Assembly: GCA_963714975.1 (NCBI GenBank)
Contig: CAVQQD010000001.1
Coordinates: 288,001 to 352,000, forward strand
Reading direction: 5' to 3'
Origin: an uncultured Gammaproteobacteria bacterium
Lineage (GTDB): Bacteria > Pseudomonadota > Gammaproteobacteria > JAURND01
DNA length: 64,000 nt
This document shows positions 4,301 through 48,475 of the stretch, piece after piece. The first letter of the stretch is position 1; each line of letters opens with the position of its first letter. The position numbers and the translations under genes are program-made. The notes under the pieces are model-generated. The model ran no database searches. It was not told where the DNA came from and saw nothing but the letters and a program-made list of their open reading frames with translations.

Positions 4301-5858
4301 CAGATGGGGAACTGGCAGATGCTTGCTGAGCTGATTCTGGAGCCAAAAGTGTAATAATTTTTGCTGCCATACGTATTCTGAACTCACCCTCCTGGTCCTT
4401 GGGTAAACTTTTCCAGTATTGTACCAGGAACTCTAAATGTAAATGTGCCTGTGCATTTTGTGACTGTAATAACGGAATTATGCTGCTTAGCGCCAATAAA
4501 AATTTATCTCTCGCCCACTGCCTCCTATTGTCAAGTGAGACTCGTAACTTTTGAAATTGTTCTGTTATTTGGGATTCAGTTAAGTCACCTCCAAGATCTG
4601 TGGTCCGATCGCTAATAAAGTTTCTTAACCCTTGTTCACCCTCTATTAATTCAGGCGGTAGCATTTCTTGTGGTATTTGTTCTTCTTCAGGTAATTTGTG
4701 GCTTGTTAAAAAGCCCATCACCTTGCTTTGACAATAACCTGCATCCGGTAATTGTTTTGCAAAATCAAATAATTGCTGCTTTCGCATTTTAGTGAGCGAG
4801 CTATTACATTGCCCCTGAAAGTAATCTGTAATTTCAGAGAGTACTCTCCTATATTGCTCAAAACCGTTATTAATTAATTCGTAATAACGTTTAGCGTCAG
4901 AGCTTGCTTTCATATCTAGCGCACGAAAAGCCTTTGAATTCCGTTCCATTGTTCCCTGTAAATCCAAGTCTGTAGTTTTTTCTCGTAAATTAACCGTGCG
5001 TCTGCCGGGTGTCCTAAGCTCAATTAAAAAAGTTTCAGCTGCTGTTTTTAACTTTTCCACTTTATTTACATAATCCTCCCACACAGATAAATAATTTTCT
5101 GCTAAAGGTGCTGCTTTGGGGCTTTTTTCATCAAGCCTCGGAGAGGGATTCGGAGAGGAATGATGAAAATAAGAAGAATAAGCACGGGAAACTTGAGAAC
5201 TAATGTGGCTTGAAGAAACATGAGATGTTAGGTCATTTTTAAGAATTTTTTCATAATCAATCCAACGTGCAGTATCAGCTGGTTCAAATGTTATCAAACG
5301 ACGTTGAGTGTCAACTATCTGTTGCTTTAAATACTCAATAGCATTATTTGCTTCTTCTATTTTAGGATCATTTTGATAATTGGGTAAACTTGTCCAGTAT
5401 TTCGCAAGGAACTCTATTTGCATTTTTGCGAGGACGCAGCTACGCAGTGTAGATTCATTATCGTCTGATTGCAACAGAGATGCTGCCCCTAGGATCTTTG
5501 AAAAATTTTCCTCTGCCGATGCTTTTGCCTTAGCAAGGGAGGCTCGCGATTCTTGAACGCGCGAAACTGTTATTTTAATTTCGTCTGATGTTAAGTTACC
5601 CTGAGCCCATTCGGAGATAAATGCTGCCAATTGTCCTTGATCGCCCTCTAACAATTCCCGCGGTAAAGTTTCTTGTTTAATTTTTGGTATCGGTTGTTCT
5701 TGAAACTCAGTTTTTTTTGCTAGAGATGAAAATTCATTATAAGCTATGCTCAACGCCGTCATTGCATCAACATAAGTTTTTATTAATAATTTGGGATCTA
5801 AAACATTATCCATCTCTTCAGGTATTTTTATTTTCTTTTCTTTTTGTTCTAATTCCAT
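1371..5858 (-). CDS. 1495-aa orphan helical-repeat protein, candidate Dot/Icm-type effector
   Basis: Long ORF with internally duplicated modules (S[IV]W.[KE]HL...A..TF..E....PTV[DN]L), Ser-rich linkers and an acidic C-terminus. Confidence 0.8.
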   Translation of the reverse strand: MELEQKEKKIKIPEEMDNVLDPKLLIKTYVDAMTALSIAYNEFSSLAKKTEFQEQPIPKIKQETLPRELLEGDQGQLAAFISEWAQGNLTSDEIKITVSRVQESRASLAKAKASAEENFSKILGAASLLQSDDNESTLRSCVLAKMQIEFLAKYWTSLPNYQNDPKIEEANNAIEYLKQQIVDTQRRLITFEPADTARWIDYEKILKNDLTSHVSSSHISSQVSRAYSSYFHHSSPNPSPRLDEKSPKAAPLAENYLSVWEDYVNKVEKLKTAAETFLIELRTPGRRTVNLREKTTDLDLQGTMERNSKAFRALDMKASSDAKRYYELINNGFEQYRRVLSEITDYFQGQCNSSLTKMRKQQLFDFAKQLPDAGYCQSKVMGFLTSHKLPEEEQIPQEMLPPELIEGEQGLRNFISDRTTDLGGDLTESQITEQFQKLRVSLDNRRQWARDKFLLALSSIIPLLQSQNAQAHLHLEFLVQYWKSLPKDQEGEFRIRMAAKIITLLAPESAQQASASSPSASSTSSLSSNSMSSPAICNTFPLDHLSLPIAELDSPLNLALTVNVQAIEGELTNSWEKHLEAFALRSRDKSQETTRYQQQTLDILVQQIRKEIIHSINQQHTALIKKFKSDNWGKEQVPGAIAQLEQWHNFAKNLRRNPAEYQATLQRIKKALLFLDPEYEYSNLSHSKDEEKKNRVTNSLELHVQRTSVAIGRDVDIPSIWKEHLRDLEDCHEKAATFLKELETFRDPTVDLGKVTTMENRLNKDPKAFALLYSGTGADAEQYVALMCAALYKWDEKCENINNVIKKQLQALQGKIGNSQWGDECVGYIKQLERLQQFASRLGVNFRGKDVYLQQITQALVVLHSVRSRDSQQCSELDGANDQDAKKLTEREKRISVLKKQLANAQALKAATDTFFMEFNSPDKLIPTVDLSEKIRTMYRSQTESGQAPVLQSDEDNYGKQIDTALAEVRKKRSEIADRIAKQNIALKNSWENKPVSLSEVNEIKKKLQRLYNFTMEGVEESPQYQAIRQEIVQHSGELNALHGALVASTVADEDKTPLKITSAQHASASSSSASSASSRTANSSSPATWSWSPSHFHHPSPPRSDEKKQRVTNSLGLHAQPSSVAIGHDVETISIWEQHLRDIEFCHEKATIFLDELKTSRDPTVDLLNTGTIEDRVNEHKKAFDLVISGKGADAEKYNGLIRVAIFQWNETGKEIVRVIDEQLKTLWSKIGNLQGGAEVAGYIKQLERLQQFASKLGPNFSCKDRYSQTIKQTLDGLRAAKLDNFQKFLQSLSNVANDQVDKEMMERAKRISIWEKHLANAQALNAAADTFLREFKSPDTLAPTVNLQEIFGNFHSTQHEHKQALVLRELKQDSEVMAYDKQIHAALTAFEIKRSDIVTLISAQYIALTNTWEKNLESLSTLDTMKLALQRLYNFAKTTGGESAEYQDVLKKMVDQLQDLARLCAAVAIKDKDPDDNDEDNDEDNTLSGPGVS

Positions 5859-31367: not shown

Positions 31368-32426
31368 TTATAACTCAACATTTAATTGACGTGGTTTGCG
31401 GTTTTTCCATGCCCCTTTATGGTAGGCGTATCCTGCAATTAAAGGTAATGCGATCGTCGCTTCACAAAATACCATTTGTTCATACACCGTAGATACCTTC
31501 CCCCAGGAACAGGCTTCGCGTAAGGTAGATCCCGAGAGCGCGCCATCTCGCTCATCAGCCACAGTAATTTGTATGGCATATTTATGTAAGGGCGCCGACT
31601 CCCCGAGCAATTCCGCAGCAACCACAATATCCTGAGCAAAATTTTTCGGCACGCCGCCTCCAACCATCAGTAAGCCCGTGTCTTTACTCTTCACTTTAAG
31701 CGCCGTCAATTCTCGAAAATCTTTCACCGAATCGATGCTGACATGCTGAGCAGGATTTTGTACCTGATGCATGACTAACCCAAATCCAGCACTACAATCA
31801 CTGAAGGCCGGCACGAAAATGGGCACTTGCTGTTGATACGCCGTCGCTACAATCGAATTTGCTTGCGGATGCTTGTTTGCTAAATATTCGCCCATGGCGT
31901 AAATAAACTCTCGAGAAGAAAAGGACCGTTTTTCTAGCTGATCGGCAATTTGCGCAATAGTATGGTCACAGACGCGCAAAGAATCTTCATCAATCAAAGT
32001 ATCATAAATTCTATCGATCGCTAATGCCTGTAATTGTTGGTCATCAAGCAGCGCTGAGCCCTGATAATGCTTAAAGCCCAATCCTTCAAAAAAATCTTGA
32101 TCGACAATATTAGCTCCGGTGGAAACAATGGCATCTACCATTTGATTTTTCAGTAAGTCTATGACGATTTGTTTTAATCCCGCACTAATCAGCGAACCTG
32201 CCAAACAGAGGATGATCGTGCATTCAGTATCCTCAAGCATTTGGTGGTAAATCTCTGCTGCACGCGCTAAATTTCTGCCTTGAAATGCGGTATCAGCCAT
32301 CGCTTCCACCAAGGGAACCACATTGGTTTGGGTGATATCAAGATGCTTCACTTCTTGACTGAGCAATTTTTGCTTGCTCAAGTGCTCTTGAGTTGCATTG
32401 GAATCTTCAAGCTTGGTTTCAAGCAT
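31368..32426 (-). CDS. Deoxyhypusine-synthase-like protein (SpeY-like, homospermidine pathway)
   Basis: STGAN, GGGVPKNF and DGALSGSTLREACSWGK motifs; co-transcribed with speA. Confidence 0.9.
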   Translation of the reverse strand: MLETKLEDSNATQEHLSKQKLLSQEVKHLDITQTNVVPLVEAMADTAFQGRNLARAAEIYHQMLEDTECTIILCLAGSLISAGLKQIVIDLLKNQMVDAIVSTGANIVDQDFFEGLGFKHYQGSALLDDQQLQALAIDRIYDTLIDEDSLRVCDHTIAQIADQLEKRSFSSREFIYAMGEYLANKHPQANSIVATAYQQQVPIFVPAFSDCSAGFGLVMHQVQNPAQHVSIDSVKDFRELTALKVKSKDTGLLMVGGGVPKNFAQDIVVAAELLGESAPLHKYAIQITVADERDGALSGSTLREACSWGKVSTVYEQMVFCEATIALPLIAGYAYHKGAWKNRKPRQLNVEL

Positions 32427-44488: not shown

Positions 44489-44617
44489 TGGCCCCATATT
44501 ATTATTTTATTTTGGCTCCACCATGGTCGAGTTGTGAGCTCAAACTGAACTGAAGTCCTGCCGCGCGGGCGGCGGGACTTCAGTTCAGTTTGAGCTCACA
44601 AAAATTAAATGGGGCCA
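44489..44617. repeat. 129-bp element: 9-bp outer IR plus a 33-bp internal hairpin
   Basis: TGGCCCCAT/ATGGGGCCA; stem 44532-44564 pairs with 44569-44601 with one G-T pair. Confidence 0.85.
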
Positions 44618-44664
44618 GGCCGGAATAGCAAAATCAAATGCCTGCGGAAAAAGAAATTTGCATG

Positions 44665-45066
44665 CTACTCCCAAAAATCCGTTTCTCCTTTTTGCACTCC
44701 TGCTAATAACCTCGCGCACAATTCATCGGTAAAAGGCTTATCAAACAGGCCATTGAGTTTTAGTGCCTTGGCTCGCGTGTAACAGCTTTCCTCATGCACC
44801 GCATGGGCGGACAAAATAACAATCGGCACATTGGCATTACCACTTAAATGTTTGCGCATGAGTTGGGCCAGATCGAGGCCATAGTAATCCGGGAGTCCAA
44901 GATCAAGTAAGACCAGATCATAACGATGTGAAAATAATTGAATGGCTTGAGTGCCATTCATAGCTAAATCGACTTGGCAATTTGCTGCAGTGAAAATAGA
45001 TTCGGCCGCTTTACTGGCCATTTTGTTATCCTCAACGGCGAGGACTCTGAATTGCTTGGTATTCAT
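44665..45066 (-). CDS. Single-domain response regulator (CheY-like receiver)
   Basis: VLAVEDN, LLDLGLPD..G, ILSAH and DKPF motifs. Confidence 0.9.
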   Translation of the reverse strand: MNTKQFRVLAVEDNKMASKAAESIFTAANCQVDLAMNGTQAIQLFSHRYDLVLLDLGLPDYYGLDLAQLMRKHLSGNANVPIVILSAHAVHEESCYTRAKALKLNGLFDKPFTDELCARLLAGVQKGETDFWE

Positions 45067-45202
45067 GATGGGTTGCTCCTATTGTTATCGTTAAAATGGA
45101 TTCATCAAACCAAGAAATCTTAAGGAGTAATAGTGGCAGAGATTAAAGAGATGACAGAGCAGGAGATCAAATCGCTGCCCCGCCACCGCTACCTCTGCCA
45201 CT

Positions 45203-45406
45203 TTATCGACCCAACCTCACCATCCTCCTTCCACACCCCAAATCGCTACAAAATGCTGCCCTACCACCCCACAATGGCTGCGAGGATTTAAAGCAGACAA
45301 CATTCTGATTTGACAATGGAAATACCACGAACGATTGGCACGTAAGAGAAAAATAATTGAAGCTGTTTTGCACGGACGCAAGATGCGTTAAACTGACAAC
45401 AGCCAT
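45203..45406 (-). CDS. 67-aa small ORF under a SymR-like antisense RNA (candidate type I toxin or relic)
   Basis: AAGGAG RBS; promoter TTGCTA-N17-GATAAT at 45509-45481; no SymE motif. Confidence 0.5.
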   Translation of the reverse strand: MAVVSLTHLASVQNSFNYFSLTCQSFVVFPLSNQNVVCFKSSQPLWGGRAAFCSDLGCGRRMVRLGR

Positions 45407-45479
45407 TGTTGAATCTCCTTGGTTAGATTCCAGTGGTTAGCGTGTGGATCAGGTGTTTGACGCACCTACCACACGCGCT
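45401..45479 (+). ncRNA. SymR-like cis-antisense sRNA
   Basis: AGCCAT start, GAATCT-ccttggtt-AGATTC hairpin, GTGGTTAGCG linker, GGTGTTTGACGCACC hairpin, GCGCT end; -10 TAAACT at 45389-45394. Confidence 0.7.
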
Positions 45480-45559
45480 TATTATCCTCAGATTATTTTA
45501 ATCTAGCAACTGTTTTTTGTGCTAAATAATCCTAACTACACGAGAGGAATGTTAACAAT

Positions 45560-45595
45560 TACGGTATTGTTTGTTCACTGTTGTGATTATAGATT
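45560..45595 (+). promoter_or_regulatory. Promoter of Rpn-2 with TACGGTA abutting the -35
   Basis: TACGGTA-TTGTTT-N17-TAGATT. Confidence 0.55.
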
Positions 45596-45630
45596 AGCCT
45601 TCTTTAATAAAAAGAAGGCTAATTTACCCC

Positions 45631-46590
45631 ATGACTCAAAATAAAATTTCTAACACCGTAAATTATAGCGATAATTTTTTTGTGCGATCTCTATCTGATT
45701 TAACTGTCGCCAAAGATTTTTTACAGCAGCATCTTCCTCAGCCATTATTGGAAGCGCTTGATTTATCTACTCTGCGTATTTGTAAGGATCGTCTGGTTGA
45801 TGAAACCTTGAGCTCCCGTTACACGGATGTAGTTTTTGAATTACAGCTCAAAGATTCTACGCAGACTGTCTACGTAATTGCCCATATCGAACATCAATCG
45901 GAGCCAGAAGCCGATATGCCAGTGCGCGCTTTTTTGTATGAAAGTGGAATCATTCGTGATCATGGGAGCAATCATAAACAAGTTCCCTTAGTCTATACTA
46001 TTGTTTACTACAATGGTGCAAAGGACTGGCGTTATCCTACGGATCTCAAGGCCTTAATTAATGCACCAACAGATTTAATTGATCGTTATTTTCTACAGCC
46101 TTTTCACTTGGTCCAGTTAAAGAAAATTCCTGATGAAGTATTAAGAAAACGACTATGGTCAGGCCTGCTAGGGTTAGCTATGAAACACATTTATGATCGA
46201 GATATCCTGCCTGCATTAGAAAAGTTCATCGACATGCTGCGGCAAGTAGAACAGCAAGGCAGGCAAGACTTCTGTCTCAGCATTTTGTATTATATTATAA
46301 AAAAAGGGGAGATCAGGGATAAAGCAGCATTTAAAACCTTGATTGACTCGCGTTTATCTCAGGAAACCAGGGGGGAAATTATGACTATAGCACAACAATG
46401 GCGGGAAGAAGGGCGGGAAGAGGGATTGACCATAGCGCAGCAATGGCGGGAAGAAGGGTGGCAGGAAGCAGCGAAGGCAATAAGACTTTTAGAAAAAGGT
46501 TTTCCCGTTGAGCAAGTAGCGCAATTAACCAAATTGCCGGTAGAAATAGTAGCTAGGTTAGAGCAAGAACAAGCGGAAGATATTACTTGA
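45631..46590 (+). CDS. Rpn/YhgA-like recombination-promoting nuclease (Transposase_31)
   Basis: TDVVF, IEHQS and VYYNG motifs; C-terminal TIAQQWREEG occurs twice. Confidence 0.92.
   Translation: MTQNKISNTVNYSDNFFVRSLSDLTVAKDFLQQHLPQPLLEALDLSTLRICKDRLVDETLSSRYTDVVFELQLKDSTQTVYVIAHIEHQSEPEADMPVRAFLYESGIIRDHGSNHKQVPLVYTIVYYNGAKDWRYPTDLKALINAPTDLIDRYFLQPFHLVQLKKIPDEVLRKRLWSGLLGLAMKHIYDRDILPALEKFIDMLRQVEQQGRQDFCLSILYYIIKKGEIRDKAAFKTLIDSRLSQETRGEIMTIAQQWREEGREEGLTIAQQWREEGWQEAAKAIRLLEKGFPVEQVAQLTKLPVEIVARLEQEQAEDIT
46381..46590 (+). CDS. Predicted internally initiated short Rpn product (RpnS-like, 69 aa)
   Basis: AGGGGGG-AAATT-ATG ACT ATA GCA in frame. Confidence 0.65.
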   Translation: MTIAQQWREEGREEGLTIAQQWREEGWQEAAKAIRLLEKGFPVEQVAQLTKLPVEIVARLEQEQAEDIT

Positions 46591-46597
46591 AGCATTT

Positions 46598-48475
46598 CTA
46601 ACAGCAATCTTCCTTATAAATTTCGACGACAGCAAATTTTACAAGGTTATATCGTGATTTTGTTTGCTTAGAAAAGAAGTTGATTATCGAATTGGACGGT
46701 GGACAGCATGCCGAGCAAATAGAATGAATTGTTGTATAAGGCCTAAGATAAGAGCGCATAATGAGCTTACCCCTCATCCGCCTTCGGCACCTTCTCCCAC
46801 AAGGGGAGAAGGATATATTGCCGAAATTAGCCTGGAGTGGTACGCCATTTGTGCTCAGGAGGGGAAGAGAGGACTTAGGCTGCCTCAAACTGCGCTGCTG
46901 GTAGATATCCACTAATTCCTGGGTGTAAGGATGCTGGGGGTTAAATAGAATTTGTGCCACATCACCTTGCTCAACAATTTTTCCTTGCTGCATCACTGCC
47001 ACCTCATGCGCCATATAGGCCACTACGGCAAGATTATGCGTGATTAACAAATAAGATAGGCCTATGTCGCGTTGTAATTCGCGCAGCAATTGTAAAATTT
47101 CCATTTGCACGACCACATCGAGAGCACTGGTGGGCTCGTCACAAATAATGAGTCGTGGTTTCATCGCCAAAGCCCTGGCAATGCAGATTCTCTGGCGTTG
47201 CCCTCCTGAAAATTCATGGGGATAACGATTTTTGCAGTTGGTAGGCAAACCCACTCGGCGCAATAATTCATCAATCTCAGGCAGGCATTCTTCTAAGTTT
47301 ATAGCCAATTTTTGTGCCAACATCCCCTCGGCGATAATGCTCGCTATCTTCAGGCGCGGGTTCATTGAGGCATAGGGATCTTGAAATACCATCTGTAATT
47401 GGCCTTTGACTTTGTCCCAGGATTTAGTGGACAAAAATTCAACCTTCCCACCCGTAGGCTTGACCAAACGTAAAATTCCCTTGGCCGTGCTGGTCTTGCC
47501 GCAACCTGACTCACCCACTAATGCTAGCGTCTTCGCCACAGACACCGTAAAACTAACATCATCGACGGCTTTTACATAACCGACTGTGCGCTGCAGAATC
47601 CCCTTACGAATAGGATAATGTATCTGGAAATGACTAACCTTGAGCAGCGTAGACGTTGGAAAATTAGTAGTTTGCGGTCGATTATCCCAACCAGGTAAGG
47701 CGGTAAATAATTGCCGACTGTACAAATGTTGGGGGTGCTGAAAAAAATCCAGTACGCTAGCCTGCTCGACAATTTTACCGTGGGCAATGACAGCAATGCG
47801 ATTCGCTATTTGTTGGATAATGCTTAAATCATGGGTAATGAATAACATTCCCATTTTCGTCTCACGCTGAATTTCTTTTAACAAGGTGAGAATTTGCGCC
47901 TGTAAAGTCACATCGAGTGCGGTAGTTGGCTCATCCGCAATCAAGAGTTCAGGTTCAGGCGCCAAAGCCATTGCGATCATTGCTCGTTGCCGCATTCCTC
48001 CTGATAATGTATGAGGATAAGATTTGGCACAGCGCTTGGGATCAGCAATGCCCACTTGACTCAATAAAGACAAAACGCGTGCTTTACAGGCTCGCCGGCT
48101 TAATTGGCAATGATAGCGTAAAGATTCGGTGATTTGTTGGCCGATGGTCAATACCGGATTCAATGCTAAACTGGCTTCTTGAAAAATAATCCCAATCCGA
48201 CGACCACGAATTTTTCTCAAAACCAATTCTGGAAAATCTAATAAATTTTGTTGCTCCCAAAAAATGCGACTTGCCATACTCACCTGCGCCCCAGCTGGCA
48301 ACAATTGCAATATCGACAACGCAGTTAAAGTCTTGCCACTGCCAGACTCCCCAACCAAAGCCAAAGTTTCACCACGCGCTAACTTAAACTGGACATTGTC
48401 TAGGGCATTAAAAAAGCCATTTTCCTGGGGCAATCGCACACTCAGATGATTTACTTCTAATAATGATTCAGCCAT
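46598..48475 (-). CDS. Peptide ABC transporter ATPase with duplicated NBDs (DppD/F-like fusion); ~95-aa non-homologous tail
   Basis: Two GESG.GK and SGG.RQR sets; homology ends at HPYTQEL near 46900. Confidence 0.9.
46612..46746 (+). pseudogene. DUF559 (Vsr-like) endonuclease remnant
   Basis: [14 protein letters not shown] / [23 protein letters not shown] across a 1-nt frameshift at ~46656. Confidence 0.85.
46770..46812 (+). repeat. Family A unit, identical to 7445-7487
   Basis: Exact 43-bp match, about 25 nt from the DUF559 relic. Confidence 0.92.

Follow-up and report, generated by a model that had tools for sequence, protein, structure and literature searches.

What does a small RNA resembling the enterobacterial antitoxin SymR control when the open reading frame (ORF) opposite to it is not symE? 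This question is raised by a locus in a 64,000-nucleotide (nt) stretch of DNA from an uncultured gammaproteobacterium (positions 288,001 to 352,000 of contig CAVQQD010000001.1, assembly GCA_963714975.1); the whole stretch is referred to here as the window, and the source genome itself (G000) comprises 2.56 Mb in 3 contigs. In this locus, a 79-nt RNA is predicted to cover the translation start of a 67-codon ORF that is followed by a gene for a receiver-only response regulator. The sequence suggests, with about even confidence on our part, that the ORF belongs to a cis-antisense-gated, translated and highly structured 5' leader which controls the receiver gene. The components of this putative system are the following.

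45401..45479, + strand: SymR-like two-hairpin cis-antisense RNA (from the symR match, the fold and covariation; the 5' end is predicted)
45366..45394, + strand: predicted promoter of the antisense RNA, with TTTTGC/TTGCAC, a small palindrome (TTGC..GCAA) and the -10 element TAAACT, within codons 5-14 of the leader ORF
45481..45509, - strand: leader mRNA promoter TTGCTA-N17-GATAAT (predicted), which converges on the antisense promoter
45416..45421, - strand: AAGGAG, the Shine-Dalgarno (SD) sequence of the leader ORF, which lies under the antisense RNA and 8 nt upstream of the ATG (45406-45404)
45203..45406, - strand: leader ORF of 67 codons, from the ORF list, with the stop codon TAA at 45205-45203
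45133..45201, - strand: long terminal hairpin of 69 nt, starting 1 nt past the leader stop codon
45108..45127, - strand: fold-back segment CUCCUUAAGAUUUCUUGGUU, predicted to be complementary to the leader's own 5' untranslated region (UTR) and SD
44665..45066, - strand: receiver-only (CheY-like) response-regulator gene encoding 133 amino acids (aa) (Pfam Response_reg, E 1e-16)
44637..45518, no strand assigned: repeated unit of mRNA promoter, antisense RNA, leader and receiver gene, from blastn against the own genome

The antisense RNA begins with AGCCAT (45401-45406), which on inspection lies opposite the ATGGCT of the ORF start, includes GTGGTTAGCG at 45434-45443 (+) and closes with the GGTGTTTGACGCACC hairpin followed by GCGCT that ends at 45479; its 3' end may extend a few bases into UUAUUAU. 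All these SymR-like features, including the anti-SD and the hairpins, had been pointed out in the initial annotation and are found at 45401-45479. The 79 nt fold into two hairpins (-36.1 kcal/mol, z -5.2; none of 200 shuffled sequences is as stable), with CCUUGGUU as loop 1 and the anti-SD CUCCUU split between stem and loop. Fold energies and G-U pairs favor the + strand as the source of the RNA, most clearly in a diverged copy (-39.3 vs -23.4 kcal/mol). In a model-fitted alignment of 20 family members, 95.9% of the positions assigned to the two hairpins are paired, and 21 of 28 pairs are altered at both partners; the covariation score of these members is 0.53, compared with 0.215 for shuffled alignments (0 of 500 reach the observed value) and 0.05-0.10 for slid controls. 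Among six close copies of the RNA, the variable columns fall chiefly in both loops and in a bulge, and one stem pair is changed on both sides. In antisense systems, the loops usually determine the specificity of pairing.

The resemblance to SymR is detectable in both directions. In a cmscan of positions 45000-45700 (701 nt), the Rfam symR model (RF01809) matches exactly 45401-45479 on the + strand over model positions 1-77 of 77, with 28.5 bits and an E-value of 0.0029. This score lies below the Rfam gathering score of 61 bits, and the scan of the whole window at gathering thresholds yields no match, so that, by the standard that Rfam sets, the window RNA falls outside RF01809. Other copies in the genome reach 34.1, 32.3 and 31.0 bits with the symR model, and relatives reach 36.4-38.6 bits. 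In the reverse direction, a covariance model trained on 20 relatives of the window RNA without any E. coli sequence (R2) was compared with a 10-kb locus of E. coli K-12 (L076), and the sole match is the annotated symR, end to end at 4836-4912 (35.5 bits, E 1.5e-5 in 80 kb, the E-values of the covariance models R1 and R2 being rough given a shortened calibration). When R2 was run on the entire K-12 chromosome, nothing came through the initial filter. The Infernal comparison proposed in the initial annotation thus gave a full-length, reciprocal match that is below the cut-off. The window RNA itself scores 100.5 bits with R1 and 86.9 bits with R2. The register is the same as well: in L076, the symE start codon is at 4839-4841 and symR starts at 4836, and in the window, the complement of the start codon is at 45404-45406 and the RNA starts at 45401, that is, both RNAs start 3 nt inside the opposite ORF. 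The linker GUG(A/G)UUAGCG and the 3' end CGCGCU are also common to SymR and the window RNA, a likeness that is not dictated by covering a ribosome-binding site. Judged by these features, the window RNA is SymR-like in plan and is probably related to SymR.

Several other Rfam antisense families show similarity to members of this family. The PtaRNA1 model (RF01811, gathering score 47 bits) gives 27.2-43.1 bits in copies from sister genomes, with no match in the window at 45000-45700 at E up to 10 and none in the source genome at E 0.001, and FinP (RF00107, cut-off 45 bits) scores 39.4 bits in one relative. The R1162 copy-control RNA (RF00043) scores 21.6 bits in the window and 34.4 and 40.7 bits in relatives, likewise below threshold and in all cases on the strand opposite to the antisense RNA. 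The RF00043 consensus carries GGAG..AUGGCU, that is, an SD and AUGGCU that match the mRNA strand here; this model may have been built on the target strand, which is relevant for anyone annotating with RF00043. In Rfam, no clan unites SymR, PtaRNA1, R1162 and FinP, and a search of the literature found no paper that treats SymR together with PtaRNA1; SymR is also absent from the 15 papers listed out of 36 that mention two of SymR, PtaRNA1, R1162 and RSF1010. Comparison by blastn of the RNA region with plasmids and all complete E. coli genomes, and of a PtaRNA1-like copy with plasmids, yields chance-level matches or none; covariance models alone reveal the likeness.

Two facing promoters, about 90 nt apart, are predicted to serve the RNA and its target. 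The -10 element of the antisense promoter, TAAACT, is at 45389-45394 within the ORF, and the mRNA promoter TTGCTA-N17-GATAAT is called by the promoter scan with 9 of 12 matches, in agreement with the initial annotation on both counts. The consensus scan did not call the antisense RNA's own promoter (45366..45394) because its -35 element is weak. The block TTTTGCRC-N4-GC-N7-KKTAHWMT is common to the antisense-promoter regions of the copies in G000 and in two sister genomes of the same order, G002 and G004 (G003 being a further sister genome). The -10 element of the mRNA promoter (TATTATC on the + strand) follows the RNA 3' end in the W-type, D7-type, G002 and G003 copies; here, leader and RNA subfamilies are named W-type for the window's own type, D7-type and subfamily 3. 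The LexA-type pattern CTG-N10-CAG, a consensus from which the box of the host organism may differ, occurs at 12 sites in the window, none of them near the locus (nearest at 31738 and 53280); with no such site between 31753 and 53280, the reported lack of a LexA box was borne out. Between the antisense -35 and -10 elements, at 45368-45381 (ORF codons 9-13), there is a small inverted repeat that occupies the same place in all subfamilies; its symmetry is kept and its letters change (TTGCAC..GCAA, TTGCGC..GCGCAA, TTGCCC..GGCAA, TTACGC..GCGTAA). This repeat could be an mRNA hairpin or a protein-binding site.

The initial annotation treated the locus as a single one; it is actually one member of a large repeat family. 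Comparison of 44600-46700 with the own genome by blastn reveals the unit in five full copies with 87-100% identity. The R2 search of the genome gives 24 rows at E up to 1, of which 2 are opposite-strand echoes, leaving 22 loci, among which 13 have E-values of 0.001 or less, and an unfiltered R2 search of 20 further receiver-upstream regions adds 5 RNAs, for up to 27 in the genome. Among the 35 tblastn matches of the receiver, 14 have an R2 RNA upstream on the opposite strand, or 19 together with the 5 unfiltered ones, at a spacing of 335-530 nt. The family comprises six W-type copies, four D7-type copies and six copies of subfamily 3, in which the ORF starts with GTG; the opposite ORFs have about 67-75 codons, receiver genes lie behind them, and the diverged RNA/leader subfamilies W, D7 and 3 all precede such genes. 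The orientation of the cassette never changes with respect to the genes behind it, which are 19 receiver paralogs in this genome and DUF3050 genes in sister genera.

The ORF under the antisense RNA is not SymE, as had been noted from the start. The 67-aa ORF has no match in Pfam or NCBIfam, and the six-frame search of the whole genome with SymE_toxin (PF08845, AbrB-like fold) detects nothing at the locus, the best score anywhere being 14.4 bits against a cut-off of 29. A frameshifted symE was considered and rejected, given that SymE similarity is absent from every frame of the - strand and from the six-frame genome search. The lack of a SymE gene in the genome and the low Rfam scores would be compatible with a decayed remnant of a symE-symR or plasmid-type module that has no present function, an option entertained in the initial annotation that we consider very improbable. 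The six close copies, like the diverged subfamilies, retain promoters, SD and start codon, the two hairpins of the RNA with compensatory changes in them, the terminal hairpin and the frame (open in 6 of 6 close copies), and the leader is more conserved than the synonymous sites of the adjacent gene.

What is conserved in the ORF appears to be its readability rather than its product. In close copies, the variable sites are distributed over the three codon positions as 8/10/9 in the ORF (204 nt), compared with 11/8/67 in the receiver gene (402 nt, 5 copies), and the ORF varies at 27 of 204 sites (13%) vs 67 of 134 third positions (50%) in the receiver gene. The even spread therefore suggests that there is no selection on the amino-acid sequence of the leader. 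The frame is open at 67 codons in all six close copies and in 2 of the 4 D7-type copies; most copies from sister genomes have an ORF of 66-73 codons, all six subfamily-3 copies one of 74-75, and ORFs of 66-75 codons are present in 14 of 17 family loci in one survey in addition to the six subfamily-3 loci. Frameshifts are compensated, by 1 nt and then 2 nt between copies G4a and G4b, and by +1 and then -1 between G2a1 and G2a2; between the compensated shifts, the peptides are unrelated and the DNA is similar. In three group-B copies, every length difference is a multiple of 3. Broken leader ORFs (31, 51 and 59 codons) are found in 3 loci, one through an IS605-type insertion. The simplest reading of these patterns is that the ORF would have to be read through, with the encoded peptide being immaterial. 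AlphaFold2 yields no usable model of the 67-aa product (8 sequences; pLDDT 41.5, pTM 0.14), which is weak negative evidence with respect to a fold of the leader peptide.

Two other small ORFs at the locus were examined as candidates and rejected. A 52-codon ORF on the + strand (45133-45291) with an apparent SD is frameshifted in copy C2a and shortened in D7; its supposed SD corresponds to the complementary strand of the fold-back segment. Another small ORF, of 36 codons in W, starts at the leader stop and lies inside the hairpin; it is interrupted in C2a, and other lineages lack it. A 15-nt block at 45273-45287 (+), CTGCGAGGATTTAAA, which encodes FKSSQ in the leader ORF, is invariant between the W-type and D7-type copies, where the peptides otherwise share about 35% of their residues.

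The even distribution of changes and the compensated frameshifts bear directly on the main rival explanation, namely a type I toxin-antitoxin system in which the ~67-codon ORF encodes a toxic peptide, the SymR-like RNA is the antitoxin and the receiver gene is a long-standing neighbor. In its favor, SymR and PtaRNA1, the closest RNA families that bear a name, are classified as type I antitoxins, the cis-antisense RNA covers the translation start of the ORF, the frame is kept open, and the loci are multi-copy, like many type I loci. The compact mRNA with its predicted 5'-3' fold-back over the SD also resembles hok and other type I toxin mRNAs. Genes annotated by NCBI as 'ptaRNA1 family toxin' are of similar size (about 74 codons; PMC11278526). 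The peptide, however, is not conserved, with no third-position bias and with compensated frameshifts tolerated; by eye, the leader peptides have no consistent hydrophobic helix; the leader ORFs match no family of Pfam or NCBIfam; and the pLDDT for the peptide is as low as given above. Furthermore, orientation and spacing are constant upstream of 19 receiver genes and several DUF3050 genes across diverged subfamilies. Accordingly weighed, a toxin seems unlikely to us. Of the two possibilities named in the initial annotation, a new type I toxin or a leader, the leader is thus favored, with a peptide that is not conserved and a cassette that precedes receiver or DUF3050 genes, and the toxin is the less probable one.

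The putative leader is also defined by the structure at its 3' side. The terminal hairpin has -47 to -68 kcal/mol and z of -4.2 to -9.3 in all 14 leaders folded, with the stop codon at or inside its 5' arm; likewise, the leader stop of subfamily 3 is located at this hairpin. Throughout the lineages examined in the order, the first in-frame stop is found at the foot or in the 5' arm of the hairpin. The motif (stop)-GCAGAGG is common to the lineages. Loci L085 and L088 carry GC-rich palindromic insertions of about 110 nt within the terminal hairpin. Upstream, the SD AAGGAG is kept across lineages opposite the loop region of the antisense RNA. In W and D7 leaders, 45108-45127 is paired with the SD region both in the minimum-energy fold and in the centroid fold. 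RNAalifold on 3 W-type and 3 D7-type leaders predicts 90 consensus pairs, 19 of them with double-sided changes; these include 4 of the 10 pairs of this long-range fold-back helix (columns 52-61 with 380-389), which differ on both sides between the W-type and the D7-type. RNAalifold also folds the ORF region itself into a long hairpin. The MAFFT alignments of diverged leaders are uncertain. The terminator scan finds no site between the ORF and the start of the receiver gene.

That the ORF region is a long conserved hairpin with many covarying pairs opens another alternative: a leader of about 400 nt that acts as RNA only, either as a structured element or through transcription interference by the convergent promoters, with the ORF as an untranslated by-product of a stop-poor, G-rich hairpin arm. 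The equal constraint on all three codon positions, a second frame on the same strand that is largely open too, and the facing promoters at a distance of ~90 nt all fit such an arrangement. It would nevertheless leave aside the strong SD, AAGGAG, located 8 nt before the ATG, kept across lineages and lying precisely under the antisense loop region, as well as the indels that are multiples of three or compensated, the position of the first in-frame stop, which all lineages examined in the order have at the foot of that hairpin, and the minority status of broken ORFs (31, 51 and 59 codons in 3 loci). An RNA-only leader therefore appears improbable to us, and a leader that is translated is preferred.

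On the preferred reading, a translated and antisense-gated leader, expression could be controlled as follows. Kawano et al. (2007; PMC1891008) describe how SymR acts on symE: by pairing with its 5' UTR, SD and AUG, SymR keeps the symE transcript untranslated and probably short-lived. Similarly to SymR on symE, the antisense RNA would pair with the nascent leader at its 5' UTR, SD and AUG and block ribosome entry; cleavage of the duplex would probably be triggered, and the transcript would stay silent until mRNA synthesis outruns the antisense RNA. Ribosomes that do load would read the ORF, itself a long hairpin, as far as its stop codon, where the terminal hairpin begins, and their passage might remodel the leader, including the SD fold-back in the W and D7 types. 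The remodeling would set, in either direction, the level of receiver expression or the survival of the mRNA. Because the six close copies differ in their loops, each RNA would recognize only the leader that it belongs to. The sequences show the anatomy of the locus, its conservation and its linkage to the genes behind it; the outcome of pairing, the translation of the ORF and the co-transcription of the receiver gene are the parts of this scheme that we infer.

Several observations weigh against this mechanism. The transcripts at the locus, their ends and their translation are all predicted, and the covariation alignment of 20 sequences was fitted to its own model. The leader stop is 135 nt from the receiver start codon, and the receiver SD (45076-45081) is located about 50 nt past the terminal hairpin, with which the predicted fold shows no pairing of this SD; therefore, there would be no simple coupling of the kind seen in plasmid leader peptides. 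In two copies (L002, L005, G000:C3), GC-rich palindromic insertions of about 110 nt separate the leader from the receiver gene, which would be easier to accommodate if the two were separate units. One partial copy of the unit retains only 45187-45518, without the receiver gene, and 8 of the 27 RNA loci are not upstream of a receiver match. The fold-back is not predicted in the DUF3050-type leaders or in subfamily 3. The - strand is poor in stop codons in this region, and another frame is also largely open. Finally, the SymR match is far below the cut-off, and PtaRNA1, R1162 and FinP give similar scores, so that the likeness may reflect shared architecture rather than descent.

The RNA and its cassette also occur outside the source genome. 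The order comprises nine species genomes, of which 6 have R2 matches at E up to 0.001 (13, 12, 7, 7, 6 and 2 copies); the three without a match are 95, 63 and 63% complete. The genes behind the homologous cassette in G002, G003 and G004 are DUF3050 genes. DUF3050 itself has no match in the source genome, and the control genomes gave none in the same search either. When 149 other families of the class were sampled with one genome each, one or two R2 matches were obtained in 11 of the genomes, and in four of these loci the opposite ORF starts at RNA positions 4-6; these ORFs are unrelated (69, 154, 75 and 57 codons). Two of the other-family loci (L119, L120) have no long hairpin after the stop (z -1.1 and -0.5), and the full leader plan is therefore seen within the order only. 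A blastn search of the leader against 40 relatives finds no match outside the source genome, and a pattern scan of 185,579 species genomes other than its own returns 35 loci that R1 identifies as real only in two metagenome-assembled genomes of the same order, the others being chance occurrences. Among sequencing runs, two soil-metagenome DNA runs contain a share of 0.05 of the words looked for, and no RNA run is listed. The ORFs opposite homologous RNAs were collected, as the initial annotation had suggested; they are unrelated, with receiver or DUF3050 genes behind the leaders of this order. The proposal of a portable SymR-type module is accordingly supported: the RNA lies in the same register over the SD and start codon, facing unrelated ORFs of 57-154 codons in the genome, in the order and in other families.

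Some of these relatives have peculiarities of their own. In L120 (G084:C143), the 57-codon ORF opposite the RNA ends in ATGGCTAG (1734-1741), which overlaps the start of a 92-aa ORF; judging from the sequence, the arrangement suggests translational coupling. A small ORF lying directly under the RNA in L072 has only marginal similarity to the 92-aa product (27% over 51 aa, E 0.015). In L034 (G002:C5), a group II intron domain (RF00029, 60.3 bits, cut-off 40) at 2418-2495 adjoins one cassette.

In the source genome, the neighborhoods of the copies vary. At L078, L079 and L082 (G000:C2:117639-117711, C2:66589-66662 and C2:568462-568536), the RNA is located directly over the start of a conserved 152-aa protein that belongs to no Pfam family, with a 128-aa HVO_A0114/HTH protein behind it in L082. 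An IS605-family TnpB gene replaces the region behind a D7-type leader in L080 (G000:C1:102438-105516), where the ORF is cut to 59 codons, and a SocA/Panacea-domain protein is encoded behind the receiver gene in L084. The window unit adjoins a Transposase_31/YhgA-like (Rpn-type) gene at 45631-46590 (+; E 3e-36) which is part of a different repeat, the join being located between 45518 and 45557. Of the 8 matches to this family in the genome, 3 are within about 1 kb of a leader-receiver unit (45631-46590; G000:C2:319730-320311; C3:425572-426099), and a YhgA-like ORF is seen by eye near a locus of G004 (L032); the adjacency may not be due to chance. Two DUF4351 proteins are encoded on either side of the partial copy C2p. 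In the window, a long near-perfect palindrome (GTGAGCTCAAACTGAACTGAAGTCC...GGACTTCAGTTCAGTTTGAGCTCAC) at ~44530-44610 closely follows the 3' end of the receiver gene and may represent either a terminator or an element of the palindromic repeat kind.

A cis-antisense RNA over a translation start is a well-known kind of system. What appears to be new, as far as the sequences indicate, is its expansion, its use on a leader that is non-coding-like and yet putatively translated in front of paralog families, and the existence of sequences that bridge four Rfam families; a literature search found nothing on antisense-gated leaders of response-regulator paralogs, the three papers that it returned being unrelated as judged by title and abstract. 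SymR has so far been treated as a one-off enterobacterial antitoxin, and a recognizable relative is found here about 27 times in one small genome, away from SymE. Concrete sequences now link four Rfam families that stand apart, and the label 'type I toxin' on small ORFs opposite such RNAs may sometimes mark leaders. If the translated-leader interpretation is correct, the system would be a chromosomal counterpart of the antisense-plus-leader-peptide logic of plasmid replication, spread across an orphan response-regulator family, and it would supply natural, near-identical antisense/target pairs with differing loops that are suited to the study of pair specificity. A more ambitious and, in our estimate, doubtful proposition is that SymR, PtaRNA1, the IncQ copy-control RNA and perhaps FinP constitute one old mobile class of ~75-nt two-hairpin RNAs which was domesticated in this order as a standard gate before paralog families (at least 19 CheY-like receivers here, DUF3050 in sister genera), with copy-specific loops, a leader ORF whose reading matters and whose peptide does not, and a hairpin at the stop codon. 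Were this so, dozens of signaling genes would be under private, threshold-type RNA control.

Comparison with the known systems delineates both the similarities and the distinctions. With SymR/symE, the locus shares the RNA start 3 nt beyond the start codon, the two hairpins, the linker GUG(A/G)UUAGCG, the 3' end CGCGCU and the reciprocal covariance-model matches. In contrast to SymR/symE, the window RNA scores half of the Rfam cut-off, its target is not SymE but a leader that lacks conservation and has a hairpin and a further gene behind it, a LexA box is missing, and there are about 27 copies per genome instead of one. The size, the two-hairpin plan and the coverage of the start codon are shared with PtaRNA1 (RF01811). 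The ORF that partners PtaRNA1 has about 74 codons (PMC11278526). The window copy, however, has no PtaRNA1 match, and the loci here are chromosomal, expanded and linked to receiver or DUF3050 genes; none of 10 small ORFs, nor 4 others, matched a relevant model in NCBIfam, in a model set where the presence of the ptaRNA1 toxin model is unconfirmed. The R1162/RSF1010 (IncQ) RNA (RF00043) and FinP (RF00107) are likewise two-hairpin RNAs of ~75-79 nt that cover the SD and first codons of their targets, and they differ in controlling plasmid replication or transfer genes rather than chromosomal paralog families.

A functional analogy exists with plasmid leaders such as those of R1 (CopA/tap-repA) and ColIb-P9 (Inc RNA/repY-repZ), in which the antisense RNA blocks a leader ORF whose reading to the stop opens the structure for the downstream gene. 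These leader ORFs of the tap/repY type are short and end beside the downstream start codon. Here, too, the start of the leader ORF is covered by the antisense RNA, but the ORF has 67 codons, its stop is 135 nt before the receiver start and the receiver SD lies outside the hairpin. Finally, with hok/sok, the locus has in common the compact mRNA, the long-range pairing that hides the SD, the ~70-codon frame under a short antisense RNA and the many copies per genome; in contrast to hok/sok, there is no conserved hydrophobic peptide, no overlapping second frame is kept (the candidate is broken in copy C2a), and the transcript appears to run into another gene.

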